Virus record (IMG/VR): IMGVR_UViG_3300048834_000123
Span: 1 to 27,489 of that record
Length of the DNA stretch: 27,489 nt
Origin: a virus
Taxonomy: Duplodnaviria > Caudoviricetes
Direction: 5' to 3' (one strand)
The notes under the pieces: generated by a model
What the model was told of the DNA's origin: nothing
Seen by the model: only the letters and a program-made list of their open reading frames with translations
The model's database searches: none
Part shown: positions 2,063-27,489 of the stretch, in pieces
How the letters are laid out: the number at the start of each line of letters is the position of its first letter
How positions within the stretch are numbered: position 1 is the first letter of the stretch
Translations under genes and position numbers: made by a program

Positions 2063-2120
2063 GCCCGGGGGTTTCTGGAAAAGCTGGTCGGGCATCCCGG
2101 CCGGCAACGAGGATTGAAGC

Positions 2121-2519
2121 ATGACTATCAAACTGAACGATTCGCGCCAGGCCCCGCTGTGGGCCTACGTGGATATCAACCTGGAAGACTTCGCCGACGG
2201 TGCGGTGCAGGACGCTATCGAGCTGCCGGGCGACGCCATTGTGGTGGGCGGCTTTGTACAGCCAATCACCACATTCAACGCGGCCACCACCGCAACGCTG
2301 AAGGTTGGCGATGCCCTGGACGACGACCGCTATACCGCGGCCCCGGCTGACGTGAAAGCGCTGACCTTGGTTCCGTTGAACGTAACTGGCTACCGGATGC
2401 CTGCCATGGGCAAGCTGAAGGTGACCTATGCGTCTACTGGTGCAGCCGCCACCACCGGCAAGTGTCGAGTGGCTGTGAGCTACATCCGCGCCGGCCGCAC
2501 GCAAAGCACTCAGGGCTGA
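2121..2519 (+). CDS. Putative capsid decoration/cement protein
   Basis: 132 aa, beta-rich (LP-x-x-A-I-V, LKVGD), immediately after the capsid gene, with a GAGG RBS. Confidence 0.65.
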   Translation: MTIKLNDSRQAPLWAYVDINLEDFADGAVQDAIELPGDAIVVGGFVQPITTFNAATTATLKVGDALDDDRYTAAPADVKALTLVPLNVTGYRMPAMGKLKVTYASTGAAATTGKCRVAVSYIRAGRTQSTQG

Positions 2520-2527
2520 GTGCGTTA

Positions 2528-2547
2528 AGGCCGGGGTGACCCGGCCT
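2528..2547 (+). terminator. GNRA-capped hairpin (weak terminator or mRNA stabiliser)
   Basis: AGGCCGGG-GTGA-CCCGGCCT forms a perfect 8-bp stem. Only a short U-tract follows (GCATTTAT). Confidence 0.45.
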
Positions 2548-2578
2548 GCATTTATCCAACCGCAAGAGGGGCGTAACA

Positions 2579-2995
2579 ATGAGCAATCAACCGCGTTTTC
2601 TGCCACCTGAAGGCAAACCCGAATTCCACCTGGCCAGCACCGATGGCCATTCCTGCGTGATCTACCAGGTCAGCCCGGAAGACAATAAGCCGGGCACCAT
2701 TATTCCTGAGCGCTTCCGCAAGCTGGCGGTGGGCGAGGGTTGTGGTGTGGTTGGCCTGGACTTCAATGCCAAGGCTGACGCTGGCGCGAACAAGACCGAC
2801 CTGATCGTCGCCGCTATCGGCGCCGTACTGGATCGCCAGCAGGCTGACGAACTGGAAGGCGATGGTCGTCCGAAAGTCGCGGCTGTTGGCAAGCAGGCTG
2901 GCTTTAAGGTCACCAAAACCCAGTTCGATGCGGCTTGGCCGCAGTACGTCGATAGCCTGGGCACTGATGACGACAGCGACGATCAGGACGACTGA
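2579..2995 (+). CDS. Hypothetical phage protein
   Basis: 138 aa with a GAGGGG RBS and acidic tail, located in the head module. The GRPKVAAV..AGFKVT..FDAAW segment looks like a small helical domain. Confidence 0.7.
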   Translation: MSNQPRFLPPEGKPEFHLASTDGHSCVIYQVSPEDNKPGTIIPERFRKLAVGEGCGVVGLDFNAKADAGANKTDLIVAAIGAVLDRQQADELEGDGRPKVAAVGKQAGFKVTKTQFDAAWPQYVDSLGTDDDSDDQDD

Positions 2996-2997
2996 TC

Positions 2998-3642
2998 ATG
3001 GCCTACGAAACCGTCAGCGACCTGATCAAGGCATTCCGCGAAGACGAGCGTGATACTGTGACTCCGTATTTCTGGAGCGACAGCCAGCTTGTGCGGTTTG
3101 CCAATGGGGCGCTGACGGCTTTCGCCGAGAAGACCAAGAGCATCATCGACGACGGCTTCGAGCTGGAGTTCGGCCCGGGCGATGACGTTCTCGATTATCC
3201 CGAGGCAGTCGTCGACGTGATCGACGCCGAGATTGCCGTGGGCGCCAAGAGCTGGCCGATTGACGTGCGCTCGCCGGGCGAGATTCGCCGCTCGCGCATG
3301 CCGAAGAGTGGCAAGGTGTGCCTGGTCCTGGCTGACAGTGCGGTCGGCAAGCTGCGCCTGGTGCCGGCGCCTGCCTCGGCTGGCGTGCTGAGCCTGCAGT
3401 CCGTGCGGCGCCCGCTCAAGGAGCTGAGCAAGGATTCCAAGATCCCCGATGTAAACCCAGCTCACCGCGAGTACCTGCTGCTGCACATGAAGCACCGCGC
3501 CTACAACGTGGCCGATAGCGAACTGTTAAATCCAGCCAAGGCCAACGGATTCATGCTTGAGTTCGACCGCGAGTGCCAGCGCATCTATGAGGATGCCTTG
3601 CGCCGGCGCGGTGGAGCCAGAACCATCCGGTACGGAGGCTGA
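2998..3642 (+). CDS. Putative head-tail adaptor protein
   Basis: 214 aa. The D...PYFWSDSQLVRFAN and IP...HREYLL motifs are typical of podovirus adaptors, and the gene position fits. Confidence 0.7.
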   Translation: MAYETVSDLIKAFREDERDTVTPYFWSDSQLVRFANGALTAFAEKTKSIIDDGFELEFGPGDDVLDYPEAVVDVIDAEIAVGAKSWPIDVRSPGEIRRSRMPKSGKVCLVLADSAVGKLRLVPAPASAGVLSLQSVRRPLKELSKDSKIPDVNPAHREYLLLHMKHRAYNVADSELLNPAKANGFMLEFDRECQRIYEDALRRRGGARTIRYGG

Positions 3643-3643
3643 T

Positions 3644-4834
3644 ATGCAGCCATTAAAAACCGAGTCATGGGCGGGCGGGAGCAATAACGTGGCACCCGTT
3701 GGCAGGCTTCCTGAAGGTTTTGTGCGCTCCGGGATGAATGTGGATTTTCTGCCAGATGGCAAGATCCGCTTGCGCCCTGGGCGCGACCTGATCGCCGGCC
3801 TGACCTCTGCGCGCGCGGCTGAGCAATACGGCGACAACTTGGTGATTGCAGACGGCAATCAGCTGAAACTTTACCGTGAAATTGACTCAACCCTGCTGGA
3901 CCTTGGCCAGATTGCAGGCGCAGGCCAGTTCTGCGGTGCCGAGCTGGCAGGTGAAATGTTCATCTGCACGGCGAATGAGCGCATCCGCCTGCGCGGCGAC
4001 CAACGGCTGGCGTGGGGTATTGACCAGGTACATGCAGCCCTTTCGATTGGTGCGGGCCGGCTTGAGTCCGGCACCTACCGCATTGCGATTACCGGCGTAA
4101 CAGCAGACGGCATTGAGTCCGGTGCCGTGCCCTATGTGGTTCAGTTGCCGGGCGATAGCTCGGTCACTCTTCAGCCGAGTCTGCCGGATGGCGCAGTAGC
4201 TGCGCGTTTGTATGCCACGACAGCCAACGGCGACACTCTGTTTTTGCAGGAAGAGCGTGCAGCAGGTTCTTTTGTACTGGATACGGTGCGTAGCGACACC
4301 GCCAGGCTGATGACTGAGAACCTTGTGCCGCCCCCGCTTGGCGAACAGATGACGGATCACAACGCCCAGCTGCTGATCGTTGTCGGCAATGTCCTGCATT
4401 ACACCGAACCCTACATGCCGCACCTGTGTCATCGCCTGCGCGGACACATCACTTTTCCCGATCCGATCACGGTTGTCGTTTCCGTTGGCAGCGTGGTTTT
4501 CGTGTGCGCCGACAAGACCTATGCAATTCAGGGGCTGGGCACTGCCGAACAGCAAATGCCGTCGCCGCTCGGGATTGGTGGCCTTCGAGGCTCGGGTACT
4601 CGCTTGAAGGACGGCAGCGCCGCCTGGATGACGAAGTACGGCCAGGCGATTGGCGGCAAGGACGGATCTGTTTCGCTGCCGACCAGGGCCAGCTTCGCGC
4701 CGCCTATCTCTGATCGCGCCACCGCAAGTGTCCTCGATCACGAAGGCACCACTTCCATCATCACCACCATGCAGGGGCGGATTGAGCGAAACGGGCTCGG
4801 CCTCAGCGACCACTATGATCTGGAGATCGACTGA
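3644..4834 (+). CDS. Putative tail nozzle / tubular protein (beta-propeller-like)
   Basis: ATG at 3644 follows GGAGG, which fits better than the 3557 start; 396 aa. It begins with W-x-GG-x-NN and NVDF..DGKIRLRPG and follows the adaptor. Confidence 0.6.
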   Translation: MQPLKTESWAGGSNNVAPVGRLPEGFVRSGMNVDFLPDGKIRLRPGRDLIAGLTSARAAEQYGDNLVIADGNQLKLYREIDSTLLDLGQIAGAGQFCGAELAGEMFICTANERIRLRGDQRLAWGIDQVHAALSIGAGRLESGTYRIAITGVTADGIESGAVPYVVQLPGDSSVTLQPSLPDGAVAARLYATTANGDTLFLQEERAAGSFVLDTVRSDTARLMTENLVPPPLGEQMTDHNAQLLIVVGNVLHYTEPYMPHLCHRLRGHITFPDPITVVVSVGSVVFVCADKTYAIQGLGTAEQQMPSPLGIGGLRGSGTRLKDGSAAWMTKYGQAIGGKDGSVSLPTRASFAPPISDRATASVLDHEGTTSIITTMQGRIERNGLGLSDHYDLEID

Positions 4835-5328
4835 TGCTGCGCTATCTCTACGAGTTCGACCTGCTCAACCCGGACGGCAGCCTGGCTGACCAATGGGAGC
4901 AGAAGAACATCATTCCGCAAAACGGGGTGACTTACTTTGCCCAGGCGATGTTTGGCGATACCACGCCTATTGGTACGTTCTACTTCGGGATGTTCCAAAA
5001 CAACTTCGTCCCTGACAGCAATACGGTTGCTGCTGACCTGCCGACCGTTGCCGGCGAGTTCCTCGGATACAACGAAGCAACCAGGCCGCTGTGGAATCGC
5101 GTATTTGACGGCGTTGGCGCAATCAGTAACAGCGCCGCCAGGGCGGAGTTGACGTGCAATGTTGATCAGCGCGTGTACGGCGGCTTCCTTGTGTCCAACT
5201 CAGCCAAGGGCAGCAATACCGGGACACTGATTTCCATCGCCCGGTTCCAGACGCCGCGCGACGTTGTGGCGGGCCAGGTCATTCGCGCCCGCCTGACCCT
5301 TAACCTGATTCCTGCCGAGGTGGTCTGA
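4834..5328 (+). CDS. Putative tail protein
   Basis: 164 aa, TGATG-coupled to the upstream gene, beta-rich. Confidence 0.6.
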   Translation: MLRYLYEFDLLNPDGSLADQWEQKNIIPQNGVTYFAQAMFGDTTPIGTFYFGMFQNNFVPDSNTVAADLPTVAGEFLGYNEATRPLWNRVFDGVGAISNSAARAELTCNVDQRVYGGFLVSNSAKGSNTGTLISIARFQTPRDVVAGQVIRARLTLNLIPAEVV

Positions 5329-5329
5329 C

Positions 5330-5740
5330 ATGCCTATGTCCGCTGTGCTGAGCGAAGACGTGCTCAAGTATTACTTTACGGATGACGCCCCCATTACCCG
5401 ACCTGCAGCTTGGTTTGTGGGCCTCCACACGGCTGCGCCTGGCCGCACGGGCGCCGCAGAGGTTACGGGCGGTGTTGATTCCGCCTATGCGCGCAAGGCC
5501 GTTGCGATGGCCGTGACCGATGCGGAGGCTGACGGCATTTATGAGGCCAAAAATACCGCTGACGTGGTGATGAATGCGGCCGCAGTGGGTGCGAGCTACA
5601 CGGTGACGCATATCTCTATCTGGACTGCTGCAACTGGCGGCACGCTGCTCGGCACGCTGGCCCTGGCGGTGCCGCTACCTACAGTTGCGGGTGCGATCAA
5701 CAGCTTCGCCATTGGCGACATTATTCTGCAGGGGATCTGA
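5330..5740 (+). CDS. Putative tail (fibre-associated) protein
   Basis: 136 aa. The VGLHTA..G...EV....YAR and THISIWTAATGG motifs are seen in small phage tail proteins. Confidence 0.65.
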   Translation: MPMSAVLSEDVLKYYFTDDAPITRPAAWFVGLHTAAPGRTGAAEVTGGVDSAYARKAVAMAVTDAEADGIYEAKNTADVVMNAAAVGASYTVTHISIWTAATGGTLLGTLALAVPLPTVAGAINSFAIGDIILQGI

Positions 5741-14519: not shown

Positions 14520-14561
14520 CCCCACAATGATGCCGCGCGGTGCGGCTGGTTGGAGGTGGCG

Positions 14562-17500
14562 ATGGCTGGGCCTTGGGATGATTATGGGCAAAGCAATGAT
14601 TCGGGTGGTGAGCCATGGAAGGATTATGGCGACAGCTCGCCAGCCCCAAAGACCGACGGCGCATTTAAGCGTGGCTGGAACAAGGCCAAGCAAAACCTCG
14701 CCATTACGAGCGACCTTGCGCTAGGCGACACAACGGGCGCAGCGCAAACCGTTGGCGAGGCCAATCGGTACGCGCAAGCAAACCCCGGCATGCAGGAAGG
14801 CGCCGAGCTGATGCAGGCCTGGGAGGCTGGCGATGGCATCAGTGGCGGTATCGCAGAAGTGGGCCGCGAGTTTGGCCGCGACTGGGATGATGCGCCGAAT
14901 ATCAAGGAAGGCGTCAAGGCAACCGGGCGAAACATCCAGGCCATGGGTGAAGGCATCGCCGAGCAGACTGCCAACATGATTGCGCCCTTGACTGGCATGG
15001 TCACTGGCGGCATCGCGGGGGCAAAGACTGGCGGGACCATCGGGGCTATCGGCGGGCCAAAGGGCGCCGCAGTCGGTGGCGTAGTAGGAGGGCTGGTTGG
15101 CGCATGGGGCGGTGCTTCTATTGGTAACGCGGCCATCGAGGGCGGCGGTATCACTCAAGAGGCAATCCACGAAGCGGGCATTGACCCGAACGACCTTGAA
15201 TCCGTCAAGGCATACCTTGACGAGAACAGCAGCACTCTGCTGAAGCAGGCCAGTATCAAGGGCGGCATCATTGGTGCCGTCGATACAGCCACCGCAGGCA
15301 TTGCCGGGCGCTTGCTCAATGGCCCAGCCAGGGCTGCATCTTCACGCATTCTGGCGTCGATGGGCGTAGACGCTGGCGACAAGGCTGCAGTGAAAGCCGC
15401 ACAGGAAAGCCCTGCTTTCGCGCAGATGCTGGCGCAAGACACCGCCTACCAGGCTTCGCGGCAGGGCGCAGAAAAGATCGCCCGCAACGTAGCGGCCGCC
15501 GCGATTGACCCGGCCGGTGAGTTTGCCGGTGAATACATTGGCTCCGGCATTGCGCTGGATGACTGGGACGCCAAGAACGCAGCGCTGGAAGCATTCTCGT
15601 CCATCGGCCAGTCTGGCGTTATGTTTGCCGGCCAGAAGGCATACCAGGCGGCGACCGGGCTGGGTCGCACACAATCCCCCCTGATCCAGCCGCAACCATC
15701 CGCCGAAAACCCTGCCCCGGCACCGGTCCCCGCACCAGATCCCAATGCTGGCGCTATCTCGCGCACCGCCGCCATGCTTCCAGGGCCAAGCATTGCCGGC
15801 ATGTTGCCAGCGCCAGATCCAGTATTCTTTGCTGACAGCCAAGGCAATGTCAGCGACCAAGGGCCTGAGCGTAATGTTGATCGCGAATACCGTCCGACCG
15901 GACGCGAGAAGGCCCCGCGTGACTTTGGTCCGGGCATGGATCAGCAAACTGAGCGTGGCGGCTCGGTGCTGGAAGGCGAGCTGATCCAAAAAATTCAGCA
16001 GGCAAAGGCACCGCAAACGCTATCGATTACTGATCAGCGGGCTGATGCGCTGATCGTCGATTCTGATGGGAACGCAGTCAAAGGAAAGCTGCCAACGACA
16101 AAGCCCAAGGATTATGTCCAAGGCGGACGCGGCATGGATCAGCAGTTTTCCGGGAAGAAATTCTCCGGCCTGCCTGCCGCAAACAATGCAATCCGCAACT
16201 CGCCAAACCCCGGAAGCCTGACGGCCGTAAAAGTCGGCCCGCACACTTTTGAAATTCAGGCAAAGCCGGTGCTACAGAACCGCGACAGGTCTACCCCTGC
16301 CAGCATTACCCAGATGCGCGGCATTGCCGCCAGGCCTGACTACCAGCGCGTGAGCATTTCCAGAGACTTCGCCAATGGAGCGCCAGTTGTAGAGCCTGGC
16401 GCCTCTGTGCCGGCCAGCCACAAAGGGAGAGCAGAGGTTGTCAGCACGGCAAGTGGCAGGAAGATCAGCACGCAATATGCCGTGATTGAAGCGGCCGACC
16501 TGCTTCCAAGTCACGACATAAACGGCAGCCAAAATGCTGGCTATGAGAGCGGTGTAAAAGGTAAGAGTCGCGCAATCGCCGGCAACGGCCGCGTGACCGG
16601 GATCAGTCACGCCTATACCCAAGGCACCGCTGCTGAGTACCGCCGCGCACTGGAGGCTGACGCAGCTGGCCACGGAATCAGCGTGAATGCAATTAAAGGC
16701 ATGAAGCAGCCCGTGCTGGTTCGGATCATGCCGCAGGATCAGATCACACAAGACATTGGCGATGAATCGAACACCGCGACTGTTTCCGCCTTGTCTGGTG
16801 CAGAGCAAGCATCGAATGACGCCAAGCGCATTGATACCGCAAGCATGCAGTTTGACGCCAACGGCGAAATCACCGAAGCGACTGTGCGCCAGTTCATCCA
16901 GTCGATGCCTGAAGCTGAGCGCGGCGCGCTGCTTGATGGCGGTCGCCCAAGCCGACAGGCCTATGACAGGGCGGCATCGGCCGTCTTTGCTACCGCCTAC
17001 GAAAGCGACGAACTGATCCGCCTGCAGGCTCAAGCAACAGACCCCGAAGCGCGCACCGTTTTATCTGGCCTCTTGGCCGCTGCGGCAAAAATGTCACGCC
17101 TGAAAGGGCATGGCCAGTGGGACATTCGCGGCCTGGTGGTAGAGGCCGCACAAGCAGCTGTAAATGCAACGCGGAACGGCCAGACACTGGCCAGCTACAC
17201 GCAGCAGCTCGACATTGAACGCAACCCTGAAGCCAATTACTTCATCGACCTGTTCGCCACCAACAGCCGCTCAGCGAAGCGCATTGGGGACGAGCTGTCC
17301 GCCGTGGCGGAATTGTTCTACGCTGAGGCCTCAAAGGCTGACACCGATATGTTCGGCGCCGTACCGCGTCGATCGCGCCAAGATCTGCTGAAAGGAGCCA
17401 CTGATGCCAACGCCAACCGTCAATCCGCAAGTGCGCAAACTACTCGGGACGAAGGAGGGGCAGGATCTGCTGCGTCAAGCAGGGACGCGCGAGACGTTGA

Positions 17501-20500
17501 GCGAGCAGAGCGAGCAGGTACTGCAGCAGCTCCACAGCCTGATGCCTTCCAGCTCGACAGCTATACCGAAGAAGAGCTAGCTACTCAGGCCGCCGCTAAG
17601 GTCGAGGCAGACGCCAAGGCTGCCGCCGACGCCAAGGCTATCACCGACAAGGCGCAAGCTGACCGCGACCGCAACGATTTCACCCTGTCCGGCTCGGATC
17701 GCCCTGTCGACGTGGCCGCCTCGCGCGGGCAGAACGATTTGTTCGGCCCAAAGACCAGGGGCGAGCGCAAAGATGACCAGTCAGGCGCCGCGGCTCCCAA
17801 GTCAAATGAGTCCGCCGCCCAGCGCTTTATCATAGCGCCTGACGGCTCTACCGATTTCGGCGAAATCACCAGTGACATGGCCAAGGCCGCAGGCCGGCAG
17901 GCGGGGAAGATTCGCCTGCAGCAGGGCAATGAGTCGTGGGGCTTGCAGCATATCGAGCAGCGGCATGGCGCTGAGATACGCGACGCCGGGTTTGCTGATG
18001 TTCCGGCTTTTGTCGCTGATATTGCGCAGCATATCGACCAGGTGTGGAAGCCAGCCGCGACTCGGCAGCTGGTTGCACTGCACAAGGTCGGCAACAACCG
18101 CATGATGTTTGTCGAGTTGCAGCCTGGCAAGGATGAGGCGGGTGACTTCTACACCGTAAATACGGCGTTCACATCACGAAAGGCAGAGAAGAAGGGGTGG
18201 AAGCTGCTTTGGGAAGCCCGGGCCCAGGCTTCTGGCGAATCCGGCAATCGCCCCTCGTTTGCTGTATCTCCCCCAATTGCCGGGGGGGAGGTCACGAACC
18301 CATCGAGCCAAAGTAGCGAGCCGAGTATAGCACCCCCCGTTGATGACAAGCCTGCCGCTAAGCCGAAAGCCAAGCCAGCAGCCAAGCCAGACGCCAAGGT
18401 CGAGGACGTTGGCGACCAGCTGAAATTCAACAAGAAGGGCATGTTCCGTAGCGGCGGCTTGAAGTGGAGCGACATTGCCAGCGAGAACGATGCGCTGAAG
18501 GTGAAGCTGGCCGGCAAGGAAAAGATTTGGGCGCGCCCAAATTGGGAGCAAATCATCGAGGCGCAGCCGGCAGACCGGCGCGACGGTTTCCGCATGGCTG
18601 CGTACCTGACCAAGCAGGTGTATGACGCCCTGCCGAAGCAGGCACCGGTTAAAACTGATGAAGGCATTCAGCAGTATATCGATGCGGTCACCGAGCTTAG
18701 GACTGCTGCCGAAGCATTCCTGAGCGACAGCGATGCACTTGCCAGTGTGCTGAATGGCCTGTCACAGAAGGCGGCCAGCCGCATGTCTGGCAGCTTTAGC
18801 ATTCTCGATATGCAGGCCAGCAACAAGATCAGCACGGCACCCCTGTTTGCGGCGCTGTTCCCCGAGCAGGCTGCCGGCAAGCGCTTTGAGCGCGGCACGC
18901 CGGCCAATACCAAAGGCCAGATGATCGGCAGCAAGGCCATCAAGGCGATGCAGTGGGGTACGGATGACGCCGTAAAAGCCATGAAGGCGATCAAGGCCGG
19001 ATGGCCAGCCAAGCAAGAGGCCTGGGAGAAGCAGGGCTATGCCGTGCACCTGCTTGATACAGCGCTGACGGGCCGCTACTTCGGCATGGATGACGGCAAG
19101 ATTGCCGCACACCTGCTGCTGGGCGGTCGCTCCACGGACGAGCTGGGTATTTTCGACACACGGCAAAAGGCAGAAGCCGCCGTTGAGGCCAAGTCGAAAG
19201 AGTTGGTTGGCCAGTTCATGGTGCTGGATAAGCGCAAGCGGATGCTGGGCGCATTCGTGACCGAAGTCGAGGCCACCGACTTTGCCAGGGCGCAGGTGGC
19301 GCGCAAGGCAGAGCCCGAGCAGCAGGCCGCCGAGCAAACCAGCGATAACTGGGATGCCCGCACTGGCGAGCAGCGCCGGCCAGAAAATAAGGACGTTTCC
19401 CCGGAAGAGCTGATGGAGGCCTTCGGCTTCCGTGGTGTGAACTTCGGTAACTGGGTGAAGCAGGGCGAGCGCCGCCGGCACCTGAATGCAGCATACGATG
19501 CCTTTGCCGACCTGGCCGACCTGCTGAACATTCCGCCCAAGGCCATAAGCCTGAACGGTATGTTGGGCGTCGCCTTCGGGGCGCAGGGTGGCGGAAAGTT
19601 TGCTGCGCATTTTGTGCCTGGCGTGAACGAAATCAACATCACCAAGACGCGCGGAGCTGGCTCGCTGGCGCATGAGTGGGCGCACGCGCTCGATCACTAC
19701 TTCGGTACCCAGGCTGGCCTGGCCCGCAGCACCAACCCGTTTGCCTCAACTCTGCAGGGCATGAGCAAGTATTCACGCGGCAAGCTGGAGAACGTGCAAC
19801 TGCGTCCGGAAGTCGAGCAGGCGTTCAACAACATCGTGGATGTGATGCGCTCGCGCGTTGAAACGCCTGCCGAGGTAGTGAAGCGCCGCCAGGATGCGCT
19901 GCAGAAGGCCAAGGAGGGTGCTCAGGTTGTAGCCGACCGGCTGCGCCCACAACTGGAAGGCAATGCCGAGGCCCTTAAAGCGCTGGATGCCGTGATGGAT
20001 GGCGAGGCAGGCGAGTATGTGAACCTTCCGATTCCGAATGGCAAGCGCAAGCCGATTGGTGCGATCCCCGAGAACATCAAGACGGTGTATGACTCCCTAA
20101 GCTACAGCTCGCAGGAAGCCTACGACAAGTCCTATCAGCTGCATCGCGTGGCCCTGGCCAAGGAGCAGCTGGGCATGGACATGATGGCGCGCTCGGTGCA
20201 TACGCAGTTCTACCGCAACAGCCTGGTGCTGGACGGGAAGAAGACGCCGTACTGGTCGACCCAGTGGGAAATGTTCGCCCGCGGCTTTGAAAGCTGGGTG
20301 ATGGATGCGCTGGCGCTGCGTGGCACGGCCAACAGCTACCTGGTTGGCGAGGGCAAGGCTGACGAGGCGCAGGCAGATGACTCGCCGTACCCGCGCGGCA
20401 GTGAGCGTGCACTGCTGAATGATGCCTTCGGCAAGCTGGCGGCGGAGATTAAGTACCGCCAGGAAGAAGACGGCAACGTGCCGCTATTCTCCCGCGGGCT

Positions 20501-22604
20501 TGCTGGTGGTGCTGCCTTCAGCTTCGGTCGGGGTGATGTACCCGGAGCGGCAGGTACCGTCATTGAGCATGATGCAATAAAACTTATCGCTGAACGTATC
20601 GGTGTCCAGATCGGGATCGGTGCCCCTGTCATCACTTACCGCAACGAGGCTGAGCTTTTTTCGGCAGTACCGGCGATAGCCAAGCAGGCCGAGAAGGATG
20701 GCGCCAAGAATCAAGTAAATGCCGTCTACTACAAGGGTGAAGTCCATGTCGTGACCAGTGCCTTTTCGCGGGCTGCGGATGTTGAGATGGCCATTCTGGA
20801 CGCACTGGCGCATGAGGGGCAAGGACACTATGGTATTCGCGCCATGCACGGCAATGACGCCAAGGCAGTGGATGCGGCGCTGCGTGAGGTGTTTGCGGCC
20901 ATCGGCGGTGTGGCCGGGGTGAAGCGCCTGGCCGCCAAGAATGGCCTTGATCTGAGCCTGTACCTGAAAACCGCCGAGGGCATGAGTGAGCGCCAGCGGG
21001 CAGGCTTTCTGGCAGACGAGCTGCTGGCGCACCTGCAGGGCCAGGCAGCTACTGCCGGCCTGAGCCAGCGGGCCATGGCTGCCATCAAGGCGTACCTGGG
21101 CGCGGTGCGCGAATGGTTGCGCGGGCATGGCTTCCCCAATCTGGCCAAGGGCACTGATGCCGATATCGCTCTGCTGCTCAAGCGCATGCGCGAGGCAGCA
21201 CAGCGCAAGCCTACCGGGCGCGGGCTGGCTGCGCGGTTCAGCCGAGCAATGGCCGCCATCGGCAACAACGGCGACTTCGACAAGACAAAACCGAACATAA
21301 ACTACCGCATCAATTCAGGCTCTGCTGCTGGTATTCCACCATTCAGCGCCAAGGCTTTGGCCAAGAAGCTGAACGCAGTCACCAGCAACAAGATCGTCGC
21401 CGTTGCCACGGAGAGCGAGCTGCCTGCGCACATCTACGAGCAGATCAAGCGCGACAAAATGCTGGGCCGGGTTGCCGGGCTTCACGATAGCGAGACAGGC
21501 CTGTCCTACCTCATTGCTGCGAACGTCCGCGACACCAAGCACGCCATCGAAGTCATGCTGCATGAGGCCGTGGGGCATGGCGGCGTCAAGGCGGTGCTGG
21601 GCGACAAGCTCAACATGGTCATGCGCAGCATCTACCGCGACATGCCAGCAGCAGCCCGCGCAGAGCTGGAGCGCCGCTACAGGGATCAGCTCGCCAACAA
21701 GACCAAGGCAGAGGCCGAGGTCATCGTTGCCGAAGAGTACGTTGCGCACATGGCTGAGACAGATCCAAGCAACAGTCTGCTCGACAGGATTGTGGCTCTG
21801 GTGCGCAAGGTCATCCGCGATATGTTCGGCGAAGCCCAGTCGCTCAAGTGGACGCGCAAGGACATTGTTCAGCTGCTGGCCGAGGCGAAGCGCGACGTTG
21901 CTACTGACGGTCGCGGCCCAAGAGGCGGAGGAAAGAGCTACCGCGAAAGCCGCCAGTTTGACAGCTCGCCAGCACTGGCAGATGTCGGCGAGGTGAGCGA
22001 GGCGGAGTTTGTCGCAAGCCTCAACGAGCAGTCTGCAGCCGCGATTGCGAAGTCAATGTATCGCGCTCGCGGCACTGACTCGCCATTCTTCAAGAAGTGG
22101 TTCGGCAGCAGCCGTATGGTTGACAAGCAGGGCCGGCCGGTTGCCTTCGTTCATCGCAGCTACGGCGAGCGCGACACCTTCCGCGATGCCGATCTTGGCG
22201 GCAACACCGGCACCCCGACGGCGGCGCTCGGGCACTACCTGGCCCGCAAGGACGTAGGTAACGTGGAGCGTTACGGCCCAGTGACCGAGCAGTTCTTCAT
22301 CCGCATGGAGAAGCCGAAGGTCATCACCCAGGTGCAGTTTGAAGCGATGGGCGACTGGTCAGTCGAGAAGGTCAAGCAGTACCGGGCAGACGCCATGAAG
22401 GCAGGGCATGACGGCCTGTACATTCAGGGCCTGGCCTGGCCGGTGGTGTTTGAGGGCAGGAACATCAAGGCAGTGCGCAACCAAGGCACGTTCGATGCGA
22501 CAGATCGTGCCCGGTACGTCGTGAGCGATGCAACGCGAGCGGCCTATGAAGCGCGTTCGCGTGCTCGACCGCAGCGACGTACTCGACATGCTCGGGTACG
22601 GTGA
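14562..22604 (+). CDS. Large polyvalent (injected) protein, N-terminal part: Gly-rich membrane segment, ddrB-like ParB, PBECR-like RNase, LPD5/LPD1, two further zincin-like domains, ART-like domain
   Basis: ATG at 14562 follows GGAGGT. Motifs: LQNRDR..AIAGNGR (~16272-16600); GKIRL..GLQHIEQRH (~17900); FGFRGVNFGNW..HEWAH (19671)..EMFAR..YPRG; HEGQGH (20811); HEAVGH (21561); FKKWFGSS..VH (~22090). Confidence 0.8.
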   Translation: MAGPWDDYGQSNDSGGEPWKDYGDSSPAPKTDGAFKRGWNKAKQNLAITSDLALGDTTGAAQTVGEANRYAQANPGMQEGAELMQAWEAGDGISGGIAEVGREFGRDWDDAPNIKEGVKATGRNIQAMGEGIAEQTANMIAPLTGMVTGGIAGAKTGGTIGAIGGPKGAAVGGVVGGLVGAWGGASIGNAAIEGGGITQEAIHEAGIDPNDLESVKAYLDENSSTLLKQASIKGGIIGAVDTATAGIAGRLLNGPARAASSRILASMGVDAGDKAAVKAAQESPAFAQMLAQDTAYQASRQGAEKIARNVAAAAIDPAGEFAGEYIGSGIALDDWDAKNAALEAFSSIGQSGVMFAGQKAYQAATGLGRTQSPLIQPQPSAENPAPAPVPAPDPNAGAISRTAAMLPGPSIAGMLPAPDPVFFADSQGNVSDQGPERNVDREYRPTGREKAPRDFGPGMDQQTERGGSVLEGELIQKIQQAKAPQTLSITDQRADALIVDSDGNAVKGKLPTTKPKDYVQGGRGMDQQFSGKKFSGLPAANNAIRNSPNPGSLTAVKVGPHTFEIQAKPVLQNRDRSTPASITQMRGIAARPDYQRVSISRDFANGAPVVEPGASVPASHKGRAEVVSTASGRKISTQYAVIEAADLLPSHDINGSQNAGYESGVKGKSRAIAGNGRVTGISHAYTQGTAAEYRRALEADAAGHGISVNAIKGMKQPVLVRIMPQDQITQDIGDESNTATVSALSGAEQASNDAKRIDTASMQFDANGEITEATVRQFIQSMPEAERGALLDGGRPSRQAYDRAASAVFATAYESDELIRLQAQATDPEARTVLSGLLAAAAKMSRLKGHGQWDIRGLVVEAAQAAVNATRNGQTLASYTQQLDIERNPEANYFIDLFATNSRSAKRIGDELSAVAELFYAEASKADTDMFGAVPRRSRQDLLKGATDANANRQSASAQTTRDEGGAGSAASSRDARDVERAERAGTAAAPQPDAFQLDSYTEEELATQAAAKVEADAKAAADAKAITDKAQADRDRNDFTLSGSDRPVDVAASRGQNDLFGPKTRGERKDDQSGAAAPKSNESAAQRFIIAPDGSTDFGEITSDMAKAAGRQAGKIRLQQGNESWGLQHIEQRHGAEIRDAGFADVPAFVADIAQHIDQVWKPAATRQLVALHKVGNNRMMFVELQPGKDEAGDFYTVNTAFTSRKAEKKGWKLLWEARAQASGESGNRPSFAVSPPIAGGEVTNPSSQSSEPSIAPPVDDKPAAKPKAKPAAKPDAKVEDVGDQLKFNKKGMFRSGGLKWSDIASENDALKVKLAGKEKIWARPNWEQIIEAQPADRRDGFRMAAYLTKQVYDALPKQAPVKTDEGIQQYIDAVTELRTAAEAFLSDSDALASVLNGLSQKAASRMSGSFSILDMQASNKISTAPLFAALFPEQAAGKRFERGTPANTKGQMIGSKAIKAMQWGTDDAVKAMKAIKAGWPAKQEAWEKQGYAVHLLDTALTGRYFGMDDGKIAAHLLLGGRSTDELGIFDTRQKAEAAVEAKSKELVGQFMVLDKRKRMLGAFVTEVEATDFARAQVARKAEPEQQAAEQTSDNWDARTGEQRRPENKDVSPEELMEAFGFRGVNFGNWVKQGERRRHLNAAYDAFADLADLLNIPPKAISLNGMLGVAFGAQGGGKFAAHFVPGVNEINITKTRGAGSLAHEWAHALDHYFGTQAGLARSTNPFASTLQGMSKYSRGKLENVQLRPEVEQAFNNIVDVMRSRVETPAEVVKRRQDALQKAKEGAQVVADRLRPQLEGNAEALKALDAVMDGEAGEYVNLPIPNGKRKPIGAIPENIKTVYDSLSYSSQEAYDKSYQLHRVALAKEQLGMDMMARSVHTQFYRNSLVLDGKKTPYWSTQWEMFARGFESWVMDALALRGTANSYLVGEGKADEAQADDSPYPRGSERALLNDAFGKLAAEIKYRQEEDGNVPLFSRGLAGGAAFSFGRGDVPGAAGTVIEHDAIKLIAERIGVQIGIGAPVITYRNEAELFSAVPAIAKQAEKDGAKNQVNAVYYKGEVHVVTSAFSRAADVEMAILDALAHEGQGHYGIRAMHGNDAKAVDAALREVFAAIGGVAGVKRLAAKNGLDLSLYLKTAEGMSERQRAGFLADELLAHLQGQAATAGLSQRAMAAIKAYLGAVREWLRGHGFPNLAKGTDADIALLLKRMREAAQRKPTGRGLAARFSRAMAAIGNNGDFDKTKPNINYRINSGSAAGIPPFSAKALAKKLNAVTSNKIVAVATESELPAHIYEQIKRDKMLGRVAGLHDSETGLSYLIAANVRDTKHAIEVMLHEAVGHGGVKAVLGDKLNMVMRSIYRDMPAAARAELERRYRDQLANKTKAEAEVIVAEEYVAHMAETDPSNSLLDRIVALVRKVIRDMFGEAQSLKWTRKDIVQLLAEAKRDVATDGRGPRGGGKSYRESRQFDSSPALADVGEVSEAEFVASLNEQSAAAIAKSMYRARGTDSPFFKKWFGSSRMVDKQGRPVAFVHRSYGERDTFRDADLGGNTGTPTAALGHYLARKDVGNVERYGPVTEQFFIRMEKPKVITQVQFEAMGDWSVEKVKQYRADAMKAGHDGLYIQGLAWPVVFEGRNIKAVRNQGTFDATDRARYVVSDATRAAYEARSRARPQRRTRHARVR
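17404..17580 (+). CDS. Candidate overprinted 58-aa protein in the +1 frame of the polyvalent gene
   Basis: AAAGGAG at 17391-17397 lies 6 nt before the ATG. Product: MPTPTVNPQVRKLLGTKEGQDLLRQAGTRETLSEQSEQVLQQLHSLMPSSSTAIPKKS*. Confidence 0.5.
   Translation: MPTPTVNPQVRKLLGTKEGQDLLRQAGTRETLSEQSEQVLQQLHSLMPSSSTAIPKKS
18203..18317 (-). ncRNA. Candidate multibranched antisense RNA after the first PBECR-like domain
   Basis: A closing stem (18203-18212/18308-18317) encloses three hairpins. An extended -10 element, TGCTATACT, lies on the - strand at 18332-18324. Confidence 0.45.
21255..21280 (+). repeat. 26-bp direct repeat, copy 1 (AIGNNGDFD)
   Basis: GCCATCGGCAACAACGGCGACTTCGA is identical to 23527-23552. 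Confidence 0.9.
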
Positions 22605-25600
22605 CTACGAAGTCGTCCTGGCAGAAGGTCATGGCGTTGATGATGGGCGCTTCAACCATCCACAGTTCACTGCCGCAGATTGGAAGAAGGTTCCTGACTG
22701 GCTGGAAAATCCAGTCGCCGTGTTCAAGTACGATGGCAAATTGACGGTAATCGCCCCTGAAACTAAAAACGGGAAGCCGATACTCATTGCGGTTGAGCCG
22801 GCAGCGGGCGCGTCTGGCGGAAAATTTGGGCAGAAACTCCACGTCCTAATCACGGCCTATGACAAGGATAAGGGCCGCTTGCCGATGGAGCGCATGGTTG
22901 AACAGGGCGATTTGCTGTTCGTTGACCATAAAAAAACCCCTGATTTCAACCTTAGCACGAAGCACAAATTGCCAAGAAGCTGGGTAGAAACCAAGGGCTA
23001 CAAAACAAAGGTATACACAGGCGCTGATTTATTCAAGTACCGCAAGGCGGAAGGCTCAAACGGCACCCGCTACAGCGTCAACAGCCAAACCGACACCCCC
23101 GCCTTCAAGCGGTGGTTCGGTGACAGCAAGGTAGTCGATGCTGACGGCAAGCCGCTGGTGGTTTATCACGGGACGAATGCTGACATCGAGAGCTTTGATG
23201 CGGCCTTTCAGGGCGCCAGCGGCCAAGGCTCTGGGGAGCCCGGTTTCTTCTTCGATTCCAATTCGGATAACGCATCACGGTACGTTCGCGGCAACCGGGA
23301 CGGCGGCAATCTTATTCCGGTTTACTTGTCCTTGAAGAATCCGCTTATCGTCGATCGAGCGAGTACCAAGTATGGCTACGACGGTGGGTACAGTCGCGTA
23401 GCCTTTGCCAACTTCATTGACGACGCGCTTGAGGCTGGCAACGACGGCGTGATCTTTCGCGACGTGCTTGATCGCGGCACACGAAGCACGCAGTACGTCG
23501 CCTTCCGCCCCGAGCAGATCAAGTCTGCCATCGGCAACAACGGCGACTTCGATCCGAGTAACCCTGATATTCGCTACAGCCTGAATGACGACGCCGCCAC
23601 CGCCGACGCACTGCGCAAACTGGGCCTGGGCGGAAAGGACGCCGATGGCATCATCCAGCAGATCCGCAGCATGACGCTCGGCGGCCTGAAGTCGAAGCTG
23701 TCCGAGTGGGCGACTCGCTCTGAGGAAGGTATCTTCGATGGCCTGGCGGGGATCAAGCGCGCCGAAGAAGCTGTAGGCGTTACCGATGCGGACAACCAAG
23801 GTTACGTTTCTGCACGCATGGCGACCGGCATTGCGGACGTTATGCATGGTGTCCTGCATTATGCGGCACCTGAATGGCGTGATGGCGTTATCGCAGGCAA
23901 GGCCGACACCCGTGGCGTGCTGGAGATACTAAGTGACCTGGGCCAGGACAATCTTACCCCGTGGCTTGCTTGGCTGGGTGGCAAGCGCGCACAGATGCTC
24001 AAGGCACAGGGGCGCGAGAACAACCTGACCGATGCCGACATTGCCGAACTGCTCGCCATGGGCAAGGGCAAGGAAGCCCTGTTCGAGAAGGTTTACCGGG
24101 ACTACGCCAAGACCAACGAGGCGGTGCTGGATCTGGCCGAGCAGGCCGGGCTTATTGACCCGCAAGCCCGGGCGAAGTGGGCGACCGAGTATTACGTCCC
24201 GTTCTACCGCCAGACCGAGGATGATGGGCTATTCACCGGGCCGCGCTCGAAGAAAGGCCTGTCCCACCAGACGGCGGCAATCAAAGCGCTGAAGGGCGGC
24301 GCGCTGCCAACCAATGACCTGCTGAGCAACATGCTGGCCGGCTGGACCAAGCGCATCGATGCCGCGATGAAGAACAAGGCGTTGCTTGAGGTCGTAGGCA
24401 ACCTGCGGGACAGCGAGTACCTGACCGACGAAAGCCCGCGCTATCAGCAGGTACTGATTTCTCGCAGCCAGATTGCCCAGCAGATCCGCAAGGACCGCAA
24501 GGCATTGGCCATGGCCGCCGATATGCTGGGCCTGCCAGAGGGTAGCAAGTTCCTCAAGGTGGTAAACCAGCTGATGAAGCCGGAGAACGAAGGCTTTGAG
24601 AAGCTGTGGACTAAGGTTGCGCCGACCGACCCGGACATTATTCGTGTGCAGCGTGACGGCAAGAGCGAGTATTACCGCGTCAACGACGACAGCCTGCTGC
24701 GCGGCCTGAAGTTCATCGAGGGTAGTGTGTTCAATGACCCGATCACCCGCATCGGCCGGACGTTCAAGCGTTTGCTGACTACAGGTGTTACGGCATCGCC
24801 TGACTTCATCCTGCGCAACTTCATTCGTGACGCGGCGCACGCCTGGATGATCAACAAGGATGGCTTTGTCCTGGGCAAGGACTCGATCAAGGGCATGCGT
24901 GACGCCCTGCGCGAAGATCAGGACTACCGCGACCTGATGTTTGCCGGAGGCAGCTTCCAGGGTGGCTATGTTCACGGCACTGACCCGGACGCCTCGGCGC
25001 AGATCATTCGCCGGGCCCTGGAGAAGAAGGGCTTTACCAAGCAGCAGCGCGAGGCCTACCTGGGCAGCCTGGTTAATACGCCAGCCAAGGCGGCCGCCAT
25101 GCTAGGCAAGGGCTGGCAGTCCTACCGCACCCTGGGCGACAAGGTGGAAAACTCCAACCGCCTGAGCACCTACAAGGCAGCTCTGGCCGCTGGCAAGTCG
25201 AAGCGCCAGGCAGCGTATGAGGCCAAAGACCTGATGGACTATGCACTTCGGGGCAACTTTGCCGCGGCGCAGTGGTTCACCGACGTGGTGCCGTTCCTCA
25301 ACGCGCGCCTGCAGGGCCTGTATAAGCTCGGCCGCGCAATGAAGGGTGACAACACGCTACTGGCCAAGGAAGTCGCAATGAAAGGCGCCTATATCGCGCT
25401 GTTTTCCCTGCTGCTGGCCGGGATCAATGACGACGACGAGCGCTATCAGGAGCTGATGGACTGGGACAAGGATATGCACTGGCACATTTTCTTGGGCGAC
25501 CAGCACTTCCGCATTCCCAAGCCGTTCGAGCTGGGCATCATCTTCGGTACCGTGCCGGAGCGCCTGTTGCACGCACTGACCGGCACGCAGGATGGCGGCG

Positions 25601-26316
25601 ACCTGGCCAAAGCGGTAGCCAACGGCGTGTTCCAGACCCTAGCCTTCAACCCGGTACCGCAGTTCTATCAGCCGATCCGTGAGCTGCAGGCCAACCGCAA
25701 CTTCTTCCGCGACATGCCGATCGAGGATATGAGCGACGAAGGCAAGCTGCCGGAGGCTCGCTTTAACGGGAACACAAGCGTCCTGGGCAAAGCAGTTGGC
25801 CAGCTGACCGGGCCAACTCTCGGGATTTCCCCCAAGCAGCTTGACCACCTGGTCCAGGGATATACCGGCACGCTGGGCGGCTACGTCCTGAGTATGTCGA
25901 ATCTGGTAGCCGGCGCGTTCGATGATGCCGAGCGGCCGTCAGTCAGGGCTGGTGACATACCAGTGGTCAAGGTTGTGTACCAGGGCGATGACGTTCGCAC
26001 GACCAAGTATCAATCGCAGTTCTACGACATGATGCGCGAGGCAGATCAACTGCATCGCACTGTGAAAGCCTATCGGGAAGAGGGAAGGGTGGATGCTGCC
26101 GGACGCCTGCTGGAAAGCAGCCGCGACAAGCTCAAGCACCGCGCAGCGCTGGGCATGGCTCGCCAGCAACTGGGCACAGTGCGCAAGCAGATGGATGCGG
26201 TATACCGAGATACCAGCATGAGCGGGGAGGCTAAGCGCGCCAAGCTGGATCAGCTGCAGGCGCGTTCAAACCAGATTGCGGAGCGGATCGTCCGCAGGGC
26301 GGGTGGAGACTTTTAA
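22546..26316 (+). CDS. Large polyvalent protein, C-terminal part: MuF-C/PBECR-like, ART-PolyVal-like, LPD38-like; probably the frameshifted continuation of 14562..22604
   Basis: In the +1 frame relative to the upstream ORF; ATGs at 22528 and 22546 have no good RBS. Motifs: HVLITAYDKD, FKRWFGDSKVVDADGKPLVVYHGT, and RIPKPFELG..ANRNFF..SPKQLDHLVQGY. Confidence 0.75.
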   Translation: MKRVRVLDRSDVLDMLGYGDYEVVLAEGHGVDDGRFNHPQFTAADWKKVPDWLENPVAVFKYDGKLTVIAPETKNGKPILIAVEPAAGASGGKFGQKLHVLITAYDKDKGRLPMERMVEQGDLLFVDHKKTPDFNLSTKHKLPRSWVETKGYKTKVYTGADLFKYRKAEGSNGTRYSVNSQTDTPAFKRWFGDSKVVDADGKPLVVYHGTNADIESFDAAFQGASGQGSGEPGFFFDSNSDNASRYVRGNRDGGNLIPVYLSLKNPLIVDRASTKYGYDGGYSRVAFANFIDDALEAGNDGVIFRDVLDRGTRSTQYVAFRPEQIKSAIGNNGDFDPSNPDIRYSLNDDAATADALRKLGLGGKDADGIIQQIRSMTLGGLKSKLSEWATRSEEGIFDGLAGIKRAEEAVGVTDADNQGYVSARMATGIADVMHGVLHYAAPEWRDGVIAGKADTRGVLEILSDLGQDNLTPWLAWLGGKRAQMLKAQGRENNLTDADIAELLAMGKGKEALFEKVYRDYAKTNEAVLDLAEQAGLIDPQARAKWATEYYVPFYRQTEDDGLFTGPRSKKGLSHQTAAIKALKGGALPTNDLLSNMLAGWTKRIDAAMKNKALLEVVGNLRDSEYLTDESPRYQQVLISRSQIAQQIRKDRKALAMAADMLGLPEGSKFLKVVNQLMKPENEGFEKLWTKVAPTDPDIIRVQRDGKSEYYRVNDDSLLRGLKFIEGSVFNDPITRIGRTFKRLLTTGVTASPDFILRNFIRDAAHAWMINKDGFVLGKDSIKGMRDALREDQDYRDLMFAGGSFQGGYVHGTDPDASAQIIRRALEKKGFTKQQREAYLGSLVNTPAKAAAMLGKGWQSYRTLGDKVENSNRLSTYKAALAAGKSKRQAAYEAKDLMDYALRGNFAAAQWFTDVVPFLNARLQGLYKLGRAMKGDNTLLAKEVAMKGAYIALFSLLLAGINDDDERYQELMDWDKDMHWHIFLGDQHFRIPKPFELGIIFGTVPERLLHALTGTQDGGDLAKAVANGVFQTLAFNPVPQFYQPIRELQANRNFFRDMPIEDMSDEGKLPEARFNGNTSVLGKAVGQLTGPTLGISPKQLDHLVQGYTGTLGGYVLSMSNLVAGAFDDAERPSVRAGDIPVVKVVYQGDDVRTTKYQSQFYDMMREADQLHRTVKAYREEGRVDAAGRLLESSRDKLKHRAALGMARQQLGTVRKQMDAVYRDTSMSGEAKRAKLDQLQARSNQIAERIVRRAGGDF
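22930..23000 (-). ncRNA. Candidate antisense hairpin RNA ending in U7 after the second PBECR-like domain
   Basis: On the - strand, CCCTTGGTTTCTACC pairs with GGTTGAAATCAGGGG and is followed by T7. A promoter-like TTGAAT-N17-TACCTT lies at 23036-23008. Confidence 0.55.
23527..23552 (+). repeat. 26-bp direct repeat, copy 2
   Basis: Identical to 21255-21280; this copy ends an intact ART-like domain. Confidence 0.9.
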
Positions 26317-26430: not shown

Positions 26431-27273
26431 TTAGCGGTAGGCGTTCACCCGAAGCCGGCGCTGCACACCCTCAAATTCAGAGGCGTGCTGGCGCAACAAG
26501 CCGGCAGCCATGGCGCCGCCGTCGGTGAAGTGGTCGACCATGTCAATGCCGATGCGCGAGCCGAGCCCGGTGAGGTGATCGTACAGCCGGCTTTCGCGGA
26601 AGATCCTGTGCAACTGCGCGAAGTGAAACGCAGTGACATAGACCTCGTACATCTGGCTGTCGGTGAGGGTGTGCAGACCCGGGATTATGGCTTGCTGCTG
26701 ACCTTCAACCAGTTCGCCTTCGAGCGGCGCCGTCATCAGGTAGTGGCACAGGGCAGGGTAGCGCTCTGCTGGCACATCCTTGTAGCTGCCGACCTGGAAC
26801 TGATCCTTGATCGAGCGGTAGACGTTGGCGAATGAGTTGCCCGGCGAGCGGGCCAGATCGGCGACACGGTTTTGAATGTGGCGCTGCTGGGCTGGTGACA
26901 GGGTAGCTTTCGGCGCGGTGTAAGTGCCGGTCTTGCGGATGGCTGGCAGGATTTCTTCCATGACCAACTGTTCGAACTTTTCCGCTTCCGGCTTGCGGCT
27001 TTTGATAATCAGTCGGTACAGGTTGCCTTCGTTGATGAAGGTCATACCGATCTGCTGAACAGAGTCAGCGCCAGAAGCTGTTTTGCCGGTGACCACCCCT
27101 ATGTCGCGTTTCGCTATACCGGCTCCCCGGCAGTGTTTGGCCACTGCATCTGGCGCATTGCGGTACCCAAGAACAGCGCACACGTCAGTGGCTGCAAACC
27201 ACGGCTCACCGTTGTCGTCGGCAAGGGTGCGTACTTCTTGGGCGTTGAATTGGAACTGGATGATGTTAGTCAT
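26431..27273 (-). CDS. BRO-N domain antirepressor-like protein with ORF6C / P22AR-like C-terminal domains
   Basis: ATG at 27273 follows GGGAGA; 280 aa. BRO-N motifs: F..QEVR....GEPWFAATDVC.VLG, INEGNLYRLIIKSRKPEAEKF, ILPAIRKTGTY. YRSIKDQFQVGSYKDVP is ORF6C-like. Confidence 0.88.
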   Translation of the reverse strand: MTNIIQFQFNAQEVRTLADDNGEPWFAATDVCAVLGYRNAPDAVAKHCRGAGIAKRDIGVVTGKTASGADSVQQIGMTFINEGNLYRLIIKSRKPEAEKFEQLVMEEILPAIRKTGTYTAPKATLSPAQQRHIQNRVADLARSPGNSFANVYRSIKDQFQVGSYKDVPAERYPALCHYLMTAPLEGELVEGQQQAIIPGLHTLTDSQMYEVYVTAFHFAQLHRIFRESRLYDHLTGLGSRIGIDMVDHFTDGGAMAAGLLRQHASEFEGVQRRLRVNAYR

Positions 27274-27327
27274 GGCTGAATCTCCCGTACTGAGTAGGAG
27301 TTCGCCACGACTGCGACCAAGCAGAAA

Positions 27328-27410
27328 GGGTGGCGAACTGTGCGCAGGTTGGTCGACCGGGGTACAGGAACCCGGCAGGGCCGAAGCCCTCCCACGCACA
27401 GCCCGCCATA
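27328..27410 (-). ncRNA. C4 antisense RNA
   Basis: TATGGCGGGCTGTGCGTGGG-AGGGCTTCGGCCCT-GCCGGGTTCCTGTACCCCGG-TCGACCAACCTGCGCACAGTTCGCCA fits the P1/P4-type C4/CI RNA fold. Its antisense segments CCTGTA and CGACCAA have complementary sites on both sides. Confidence 0.85.
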
Positions 27411-27420
27411 ACGCGAGCAC

Positions 27421-27476
27421 AAAAAAACCGCTTTCGCGGCGCTGTGCGCCTGTAACTTGCCGGGCGACCAAACCCG
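27421..27476 (-). promoter_or_regulatory. C4 upstream target sites (a1/b1) and attenuator terminator
   Basis: TTGGTCG (27471-27465) sits in a hairpin loop. It is followed by TACAGG (27454-27449) and the terminator CCGC-GAAA-GCGG-T7 (27439-27421). Confidence 0.8.
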
Positions 27477-27489
27477 TATCGCTGATTTG

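Follow-up and report, generated by a model that had tools for sequence, protein, structure and literature searches.

Type III antitoxins are pseudoknotted RNA repeats that lie upstream of the toxin in its operon, while type I antitoxins and phage antisense RNAs cover the translation starts or ends of small genes; sar and OOP are such phage RNAs, and C4 is cloverleaf-shaped. In this study, we characterized an antisense RNA unit that lies within the codons of a predicted ribonuclease (RNase) domain, MuF_C or PBECR, in a giant polyvalent-protein gene of a tailed phage (Caudoviricetes; IMG/VR record IMGVR_UViG_3300048834_000123). The window is the whole 27,489-nt (27.5-kb) virus record, which is about 45% complete and carries podovirus-type structural genes. 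As in the type III systems ToxIN, TenpIN, CptIN and AvcID, a protein toxin, in most cases an RNase (PMC8860590, PMC12283969), would be inhibited by an RNA, and some loci with a MuF_C unit carry tandem extra RNA copies. Unlike those systems, the unit consists of a single antisense hairpin or cloverleaf with its own promoter, located inside or just past the codons of the toxin, here a BECR domain within a virion protein. The window unit has no upstream co-transcribed antitoxin repeats, no ToxN, TenpN or CptN toxin (Pfam reports MuF_C only) and no ToxI-type RNA (Rfam reports no match). With type I and phage antisense RNAs such as C4 it shares a short, cis-encoded form, its own sigma70 promoter and a terminal U-tract, so that it is a cis-encoded antisense small RNA (sRNA) with its own promoter and terminator. 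It differs from type I in that no small stand-alone toxin has its translation start or untranslated region covered; the RNA lies opposite the interior of a gene some 3900 codons long. In its proposed action the unit resembles a type III antitoxin and in its layout a type I antitoxin, but it lacks defining features of both.

PBECR/MuF-C domains occur widely in the virion proteins of phages, Stx and Mu-like phages among them, and have been described as predicted RNases, with the phage Mu copy called inactive (Iyer 2017, PMC5512222). The MuF polymorphic toxins (Jamet 2017, PMC5576092) share the domain family, virion delivery and the need for self-protection, and a small downstream immunity open reading frame (ORF) was reported for 89.4% of 191 muf toxin genes. 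Such a toxin-immunity pair has its small ORF downstream, whereas the Mu-like copies analyzed below have an RNA in the gap and then gp31. We found neither a target nor a self-protection mechanism for PBECR/MuF-C domains in the literature examined; the main texts of PMC5576092 and PMC5512222 never use the word "antisense", and it was not found in the available text of a BECR preprint. No description of the unit was found in Rfam or in the literature searched, a search that most subscription journals lie beyond.

The domain (22555..23037, + strand; PF18819) has a BECR fold prediction and a Pfam match at 22651-22941 (E 1.9e-16; 60.5 bits vs. a curated cut-off of 27.6). Its tail reads KKTP..KHKLP..KG..KVYT. 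Both His35 (codon 22657-22659) and the Thr are present; the His is found in 53/53 homologues, and the C-terminal Thr/Ser is replaced by Asn in 39/53. An alignment-based AlphaFold2 model (50 rows) reached a predicted local distance difference test (pLDDT) score of 88.5 and was used in place of a single-sequence model (pLDDT 33). In this model the tail forms folded helices, and the closest solved folds are the BECR toxins BrnT, RelE/ParE, CdiA-CT and colicin D at modest scores (Z at most 5.2); Foldseek returned no match at E<=0.001. A tblastn search of the domain against annotated phages gave no match, and the Stx phages discussed below were reached via another locus, L074. The domain is internal, an ART-PolyVal domain following in frame, and no small immunity ORF lies directly downstream.

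On the opposite (-) strand, the tail carries a -35 hexamer TTGAAT (23031..23036; TTGACA in many homologues of the same register), a 17-bp spacer and a -10 hexamer TACCTT (23008..23013), whose counterpart in the Sakai prophage Sp5 has a mapped start. By analogy with the Sakai start, which falls 7 nt past the -10, transcription would begin at about 23001; together with the fold this predicts an RNA of about 72 nt (22930..23001, - strand). It comprises a long hairpin (22935..22999) with the apical loop region AAUUUG (22970-22965), a degenerate version of the 7-nt AAUYGNN loop typical of the family, and a terminator-like 3′ end of seven U (22930..22936; A7 on the + strand) encoded by Lys AAA codons. 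These promoter and U-tract positions agree with the initial annotation, and its long hairpin of about 70 nt folds as one 65-nt hairpin (22999-22935; -28.1 kcal/mol, z -3.99, 0/200 dinucleotide shuffles as stable), against -17.5 kcal/mol and z -2.2 for the + strand, the folding window having been picked around the hairpin itself. Two other details of that annotation needed correction. The stem has three irregularities, two G-U pairs and a U-U mismatch, where it described two G-U wobbles, and the unit, which it placed after the domain, overlaps the domain's own tail. Covariance model R1, whose training set included the window, matches at 22921-23052 with 76.7 bits. Only three promoter-like - strand sites occur in the 11.8-kb gene, two of them at its two RNase-like domains. 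A generic promoter and terminator scan listed neither element of the unit, and Rfam reported no family there or at a second site, 18203-18332. Under a protein-preserving synonymous-codon null the promoter scored p 0.033 and the fold z -1.6 (computed on the identical stretch of L002). The window copy is thus unremarkable alone against this null, and the strong evidence comes from homologues.

That evidence was drawn from 59 loci with 60 domain hits, which gave 53 distinct tails after seven duplicates were dropped; in the null, synonymous codons were resampled from local usage, and a stretch in the domain core served as control. The - strand fold reached z<-2 in 39/53 tails vs. 2/53 controls and was stabler than the + strand in 46/53 tails (control, 11), with G-U pairs at 180/1503 on the - strand vs. 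73/1367 on the +. Promoters exceeded the synonymous null (p<0.05) in 48/53 tails, compared with 2 in the control, and the spacer is 17 bp in 51/53. The -35/-10 pair occurs in one of two registers (31 and 21 loci) that differ by exactly one codon, and because both hexamers shift in concert by one codon, peptide constraint fails as an explanation. Rare Leu codons, CTA and TTA, form the -10 (36 observed vs. 4.9 expected), and a bias in AAA/CAA/GAA codons is seen at the U-tract. Unpaired loop bases are fixed at synonymous sites, with Gln as CAA in 30/30 cases, Arg as CGA in 7 and Leu as TTG in 30/31 (counted over the 39 tails matching a GLQLP-type peptide motif). The AAUYG loop is present in 46/53 homologues, and a U-rich end (at least six U per 8 nt) also in 46/53. 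A 6-bp apical helix, aligned in 31 sequences after exclusion of five with long inserts, is 91% paired and shows 29 double changes, some of them non-synonymous; this covariation was reached by 0/500 shuffles and by no slid register. RNAalifold, run on a sequence-only alignment, recovered the apical helix alone. From one subfamily to another the basal stem is offset by a base, so its covariation was left uncounted. The conservation of stem, promoter and U-tract that the initial annotation had set as a test was borne out, with covariation demonstrated for the apical helix. At the nucleotide level, selection maintains the promoter, hairpin, loop and U-tract throughout the family, which almost certainly encodes a real RNA. 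This is a clear case of dual coding, in which promoter, stem and loop dictate the peptide motif GLQLP...KILT.

The earlier suggestion that the RNA travels with the RNase domain is supported both by the 53 tails and by R1, which matches the antisense strand in 24/26 metagenome loci, a few of them already present in the earlier set; at both loci that it missed, the domain is broken and has no tail. A scan for the apical motif using DNA alone returned 27 loci, all of them MuF_C-domain tails, some very distant, or domain-less copies, and 5/5 distant copies tested were MuF_C by Pfam. Tandem domain-less RNA copies occur within the same ORF at L011:2048-2178, L024:2048-2170 and L065:1048-1178, and further ones at L037, L041, L058 and L109; they resemble spare immunity cassettes. 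Eight closely related loci in which the RNase domain has decayed (L062, L063, L064, L067, L072, L079, L080 and L087) hold orphan units with a near-perfect RNA and a near-consensus promoter. These orphans adjoin an apparent tRNA-derived attachment site in one phage lineage.

Such a pattern could also come from a DNA-level hairpin at which recombination or shuffling takes place, from a frameshift signal, or as a side effect of the encoded peptide. Polyvalent-protein domains are indeed shuffled (PMC5512222), the + strand folds too (z<-2 in 27/53 tails), and A7 adjoins the stem in the window. Against this, the synonymous nulls remove the peptide explanation, the A-run abuts the stem and is interrupted in most homologues, and the promoter with its register shift, the G-U asymmetry and two mapped transcription starts are at odds with any such origin. 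The mapped starts largely refute these readings, which we consider the least probable of those weighed here. A -1 frameshift signal was also tried as a candidate in its own right and rejected, the A-run being unconserved and lacking a spacer.

The two starts come from prophages of enterohaemorrhagic Escherichia coli (EHEC). The homologous unit sits in the giant virion gene of Stx phages, and its phi24B form was matched in 422/5426 E. coli genomes. Its promoter, TTGCGA-17-TATTTT, was predicted from phi24B before transcript data were consulted. In the differential RNA sequencing of EHEC tabulated as Dataset S1 of Sy 2020 (PMC7547250), an antisense start is listed at 1301472 in ECs1242 of Sakai Sp5, and its enrichment of 24.07 is the highest of four starts in that gene. 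The sequence upstream of 1301472 is the predicted promoter, and the +1 lies one base ahead of the stem. Because the mapped start falls exactly at the predicted promoter, the homologous RNA is transcribed in Sp5. The expectation of a - strand transcript thus held in part, at the Sp5 homologue of the window unit, and the different RNA of Sp18, described below, also has a mapped start. For window positions 21500-24500, a look-up of sequencing runs listed none. A search of the Dataset S1 rows found no Term-seq row for the predicted 3′ end, the Term-seq table possibly lying outside that dataset. ECs1242 holds a further antisense start at 1300538, for which the phi24B counterpart shows no hairpin of this kind; therefore not every antisense start marks a unit. 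ECs1242 itself has been reported as essential and required for plaques (PMC5155283), and phi24B gp47 was found in virions and proposed to be ejected, according to a preprint.

The same Sp5 locus contains an Hfq peak, EcOnc36 (1301433-1301515), listed in five Hfq data sets from cross-linking and analysis of cDNA (CRAC) (Tree 2014, PMC4104026), in the same coordinate system as Sy 2020. As given in these two sources, EcOnc36 and the start at 1301472 are an Hfq peak and a table row, with no link to MuF_C, no structure and no family. The Tree 2014 material examined lists no Northern for EcOnc36, and its target is given as unknown in a review. The present analysis explains the start at 1301472 and that in Sp18, two orphan antisense starts in EHEC data. 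One reading of the peak is an Hfq-dependent sRNA that acts in trans on a host or phage transcript through the conserved loop and is located here by history. The conserved loop and the orphan copies would suit it, as does the presence of EcOnc36 in five data sets. The unit is tightly linked to one domain family across very different phages, however, different RNase clades carry different RNAs, and a stiff stem closes the short loop, so that we consider such a role improbable. The complementarity between UGCAAUUGCCC in the Sakai RNA AsxR, listed in the primer table of the PMC4104026 supplement, and the consensus for the apical stem-loop of the hairpin RNAs is probably due to chance.

Further evidence comes from the gp30 proteins of Mu-like phages, which combine MuF and MuF_C with the MuF_C domain at the end. 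Among 27 distinct rows (one duplicate dropped, L122 unmatched), 21 bear the His and six do not. A - strand promoter and a closed fold lie in the gap past the stop codon and before gp31 in 19/21 His-bearing copies; one of the other two is cut by a contig end, and one has a gap but no promoter at threshold. All six His-less copies (Mu, Mu_3F6, SfMu, D108, L132 and L154) continue directly into gp31 with no gap, and gp30 of Mu, D108, SfMu and Mu_3F6 lacks the His helix. On the best tree this corresponds to two changes or losses. R1 does not match the Mu-like RNA, which is a tRNA-like cloverleaf with its own sigma70 promoter (L121:1797-1874 and L155:6642-6723, both - strand; also L129, L131, L133, L135-L147, L149 and L153). 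In 12 units, the acceptor and T stems (a 7+5 bp stack) are paired in 144/144 cells with 30 double changes, and the D-loop GG and the T-loop bases are invariant, so that the tRNA elbow bases are kept. The anticodon-position arm varies in length and loop and is not a canonical anticodon arm. The tRNA model, the only one in Rfam to match this form, scored above its cut-off for 2/6 Mu-like loci (35.6 and 36.1 bits; 17 loci scanned), and ARAGORN called 0 tRNA genes in 25 loci, L121 included. In Sakai Sp18, gp30 keeps the His, and an antisense start (5058595, enrichment 14.58) is mapped at the unit.

Taken together, we favor, at a probability of roughly 55%, a domain-specific RNA antitoxin or decoy that binds a virion-delivered predicted RNase. 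The antisense RNA would be the cognate antitoxin, bound by the enzyme as a substrate-like decoy. The giant protein would be packed into the virion and then ejected, as proposed for gp47. Transcribed from a host sigma70 promoter, the RNA would be constitutive in the lysogen and made right after DNA entry. It would protect the producer cell and all cells that keep the phage DNA intact, while cells that degrade it, or a rival element, would meet the RNase in its free form. With the RNA encoded within the very codons of the domain, shuffling of polyvalent-protein domains would carry the enzyme and its antidote along together as a single cassette, and a downstream immunity ORF would have no room behind an internal domain. 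Several BECR relatives, such as colicin D and the toxins of contact-dependent inhibition (CDI), cut tRNA. We infer a protein-binding role because loop bases are fixed although cis-complementarity is automatic, because each RNase clade has its own RNA shape, because one of the shapes mimics the elbow of tRNA, a substrate of several BECR relatives, because the RNA disappears together with the catalytic helix, and because the internal domain leaves no room for an immunity ORF of the kind reported by Jamet 2017. If this is correct, a cognate RNA explains how an RNase can sit amid a shuffled polyprotein without an immunity protein, and RNA antitoxins, in one form by mimicking tRNA, extend to toxins delivered with the virion. 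It also offers a ready way to clone and assay PBECR/MuF-C domains.

The main rival is a type I-like silencer in cis, which would pair with the giant mRNA and, by cleavage or translational stalling, quench leaky expression of the toxic domain in the lysogen. Its complementarity is perfect by construction, the Hfq peak overlaps the Sp5 RNA, the RNA is gone where the His is lost, and tRNA-shaped phage antisense RNAs are known (C4, itself present in the window). A cis-antisense RNA would not, however, need fixed unpaired loop bases, and the loop census revealed no conserved YUNR motif. Its target would lie mid-gene in an essential virion gene of about 12 kb, the Mu-like RNA lies past the stop codon yet keeps tRNA elbow bases, and a silencer would be powerless against protein delivered from the virion. 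We therefore judge this rival unlikely, though a good deal less so than the trans-acting sRNA.

Several observations weigh against the decoy reading. No published RNase activity, toxicity, RNA binding or rescue was found for MuF_C domains. The counts over the 53 tails come from related sequences and are not independent events, promoters were scored with an informal sigma70 matrix, and the fold excess is absent in 14/53 tails. The window copy combines a promoter that is weak alone (7/12 consensus matches), a degenerate loop and a frameshifted gene. Of the Sp5 RNA, EcOnc36 takes in just the first 40 nt, and the peak extends 43 nt upstream; Hfq binding suits base-pairing RNAs. The eight orphan loci mean that RNA and enzyme are not always lost together. 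In the Mu-like set, a single origin of the His-less group is not rejected (approximately unbiased test, p-AU 0.28), and the joint loss of RNA and His is also compatible with a toxic gene being silenced by an antisense RNA. Finally, there is no promoter at threshold at L122 (weak MuF_C), L124 (PBECR1), L114 and L116 (PBECR3), or L148.

Under the decoy reading, other PBECR clades likely use RNA shapes of their own, including the tRNA-like cloverleaf. A promoter and a closed RNA were found at threshold in 2/3 PBECR1 and 2/4 PBECR3 loci. Family-specific, stem-closed antisense RNAs occur at L113, L115, L156, L160 and L161 (PBECR3) and at L125 and L126 (PBECR1), and the PBECR3 form shares the CGTTWCGGACGT hairpin motif. 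Searched alone, the 16-base PBECR3 RNA motif gave 11 viral hits, of which three are Pfam PBECR3 (one being the seed), one is a look-alike and seven are others in three groups; none lies in the window. At L158 and L163 a PBECR3-type motif and U-tract stand behind an unrelated small ORF that has no Pfam match above cut-off. Among 401 genomes sampled by way of Pfam there were six MuF_C matches, comprising three hairpin units (one from the seed genome), one cloverleaf, one match without a unit and one weak fragment. The shapes thus seen across clades are a stiff hairpin with an AAUYG loop, a multi-hairpin and a tRNA-elbow mimic. It is conceivable, although short of even odds, that they form a class of phage RNA immunity genes for virion-delivered BECR ribonucleases: clade-specific antisense RNAs in or behind the enzyme codons, shuffled as exon-like cassettes, with the injected RNase as a dead-man's switch disarmed solely by an established phage genome and orphan RNAs guarding against rival phages.

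Instead of inhibiting the nuclease, the RNA might switch it on or direct it to a target, as a cofactor, a guide or a partner packaged with it. Each domain family having its own RNA shape, the variability of the lower stem and inserts, and the company the RNA keeps with the active site would agree with such a role. The variable parts nevertheless remain base-paired, leaving no spacer-like single-stranded tract, and orphan RNAs survive without the enzyme. The initial annotation had named a guide RNA as one option, and nothing found points that way; a cofactor role in general appears doubtful, only slightly less so than action in trans.

The initial annotation had also seen the same layout at 18203-18332 and taken it as a sign of a general module of RNase domain plus antisense RNA. 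The wider PBECR theme stands, but the second site does not repeat the layout. There, a domain (17820..18200, + strand; GLQHIEQRH...VNTAF) with 15 homologues has no Pfam match of its own, and its His and Thr motif suggests a BECR assignment; one homologue has a weak PBECR3 score (E 0.014), and a single-protein scan found no close viral relative. In the unit behind it (18203..18329, - strand), an extended -10, TATACT (18329-18324), goes with an RNA of three hairpins and a CUUUGG/CCAAAG closing stem. The -10 is conserved and the closing stem covaries; 72% of cells are paired and covariation is 0.30 vs. 0.16 in shuffled alignments, as measured in 11 of 17 tails chosen for alignment and on the window's own fold. 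This site has no U-tract, no R1 match and a fold excess in 0/17 homologous tails. With moderate support, it is a different and less well supported unit.

The giant polyvalent-protein gene as a whole (14550..26316, + strand; Pfam DdrB-ParB, LPD1, two ART-PolyVal, MuF_C and LPD38) is split just before the MuF_C domain into two ORFs, 14550-22604 and 22528-26316. The cause is a loss of 44 nt at about 22556 (22545-22560) relative to L001, a near-identical intact locus whose MuF_C protein and RNA unit are both identical to the window's; the loss may be an assembly error or a real lesion, which are indistinguishable. Elsewhere in the window, Phage_capsid_3, SU10 adaptor and GP4-type Gp80 genes (959-5740) suggest a phi24B/GP4-like podovirus. 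At the far end, a C4 antisense RNA (Rfam RF01695, 75 bits; 27326-27489, - strand, with partial isrK and c4-a1b1 matches) lies beside a Bro-N antirepressor-like gene (26431-27489, - strand), and together they make up the known P1/P7-type module.

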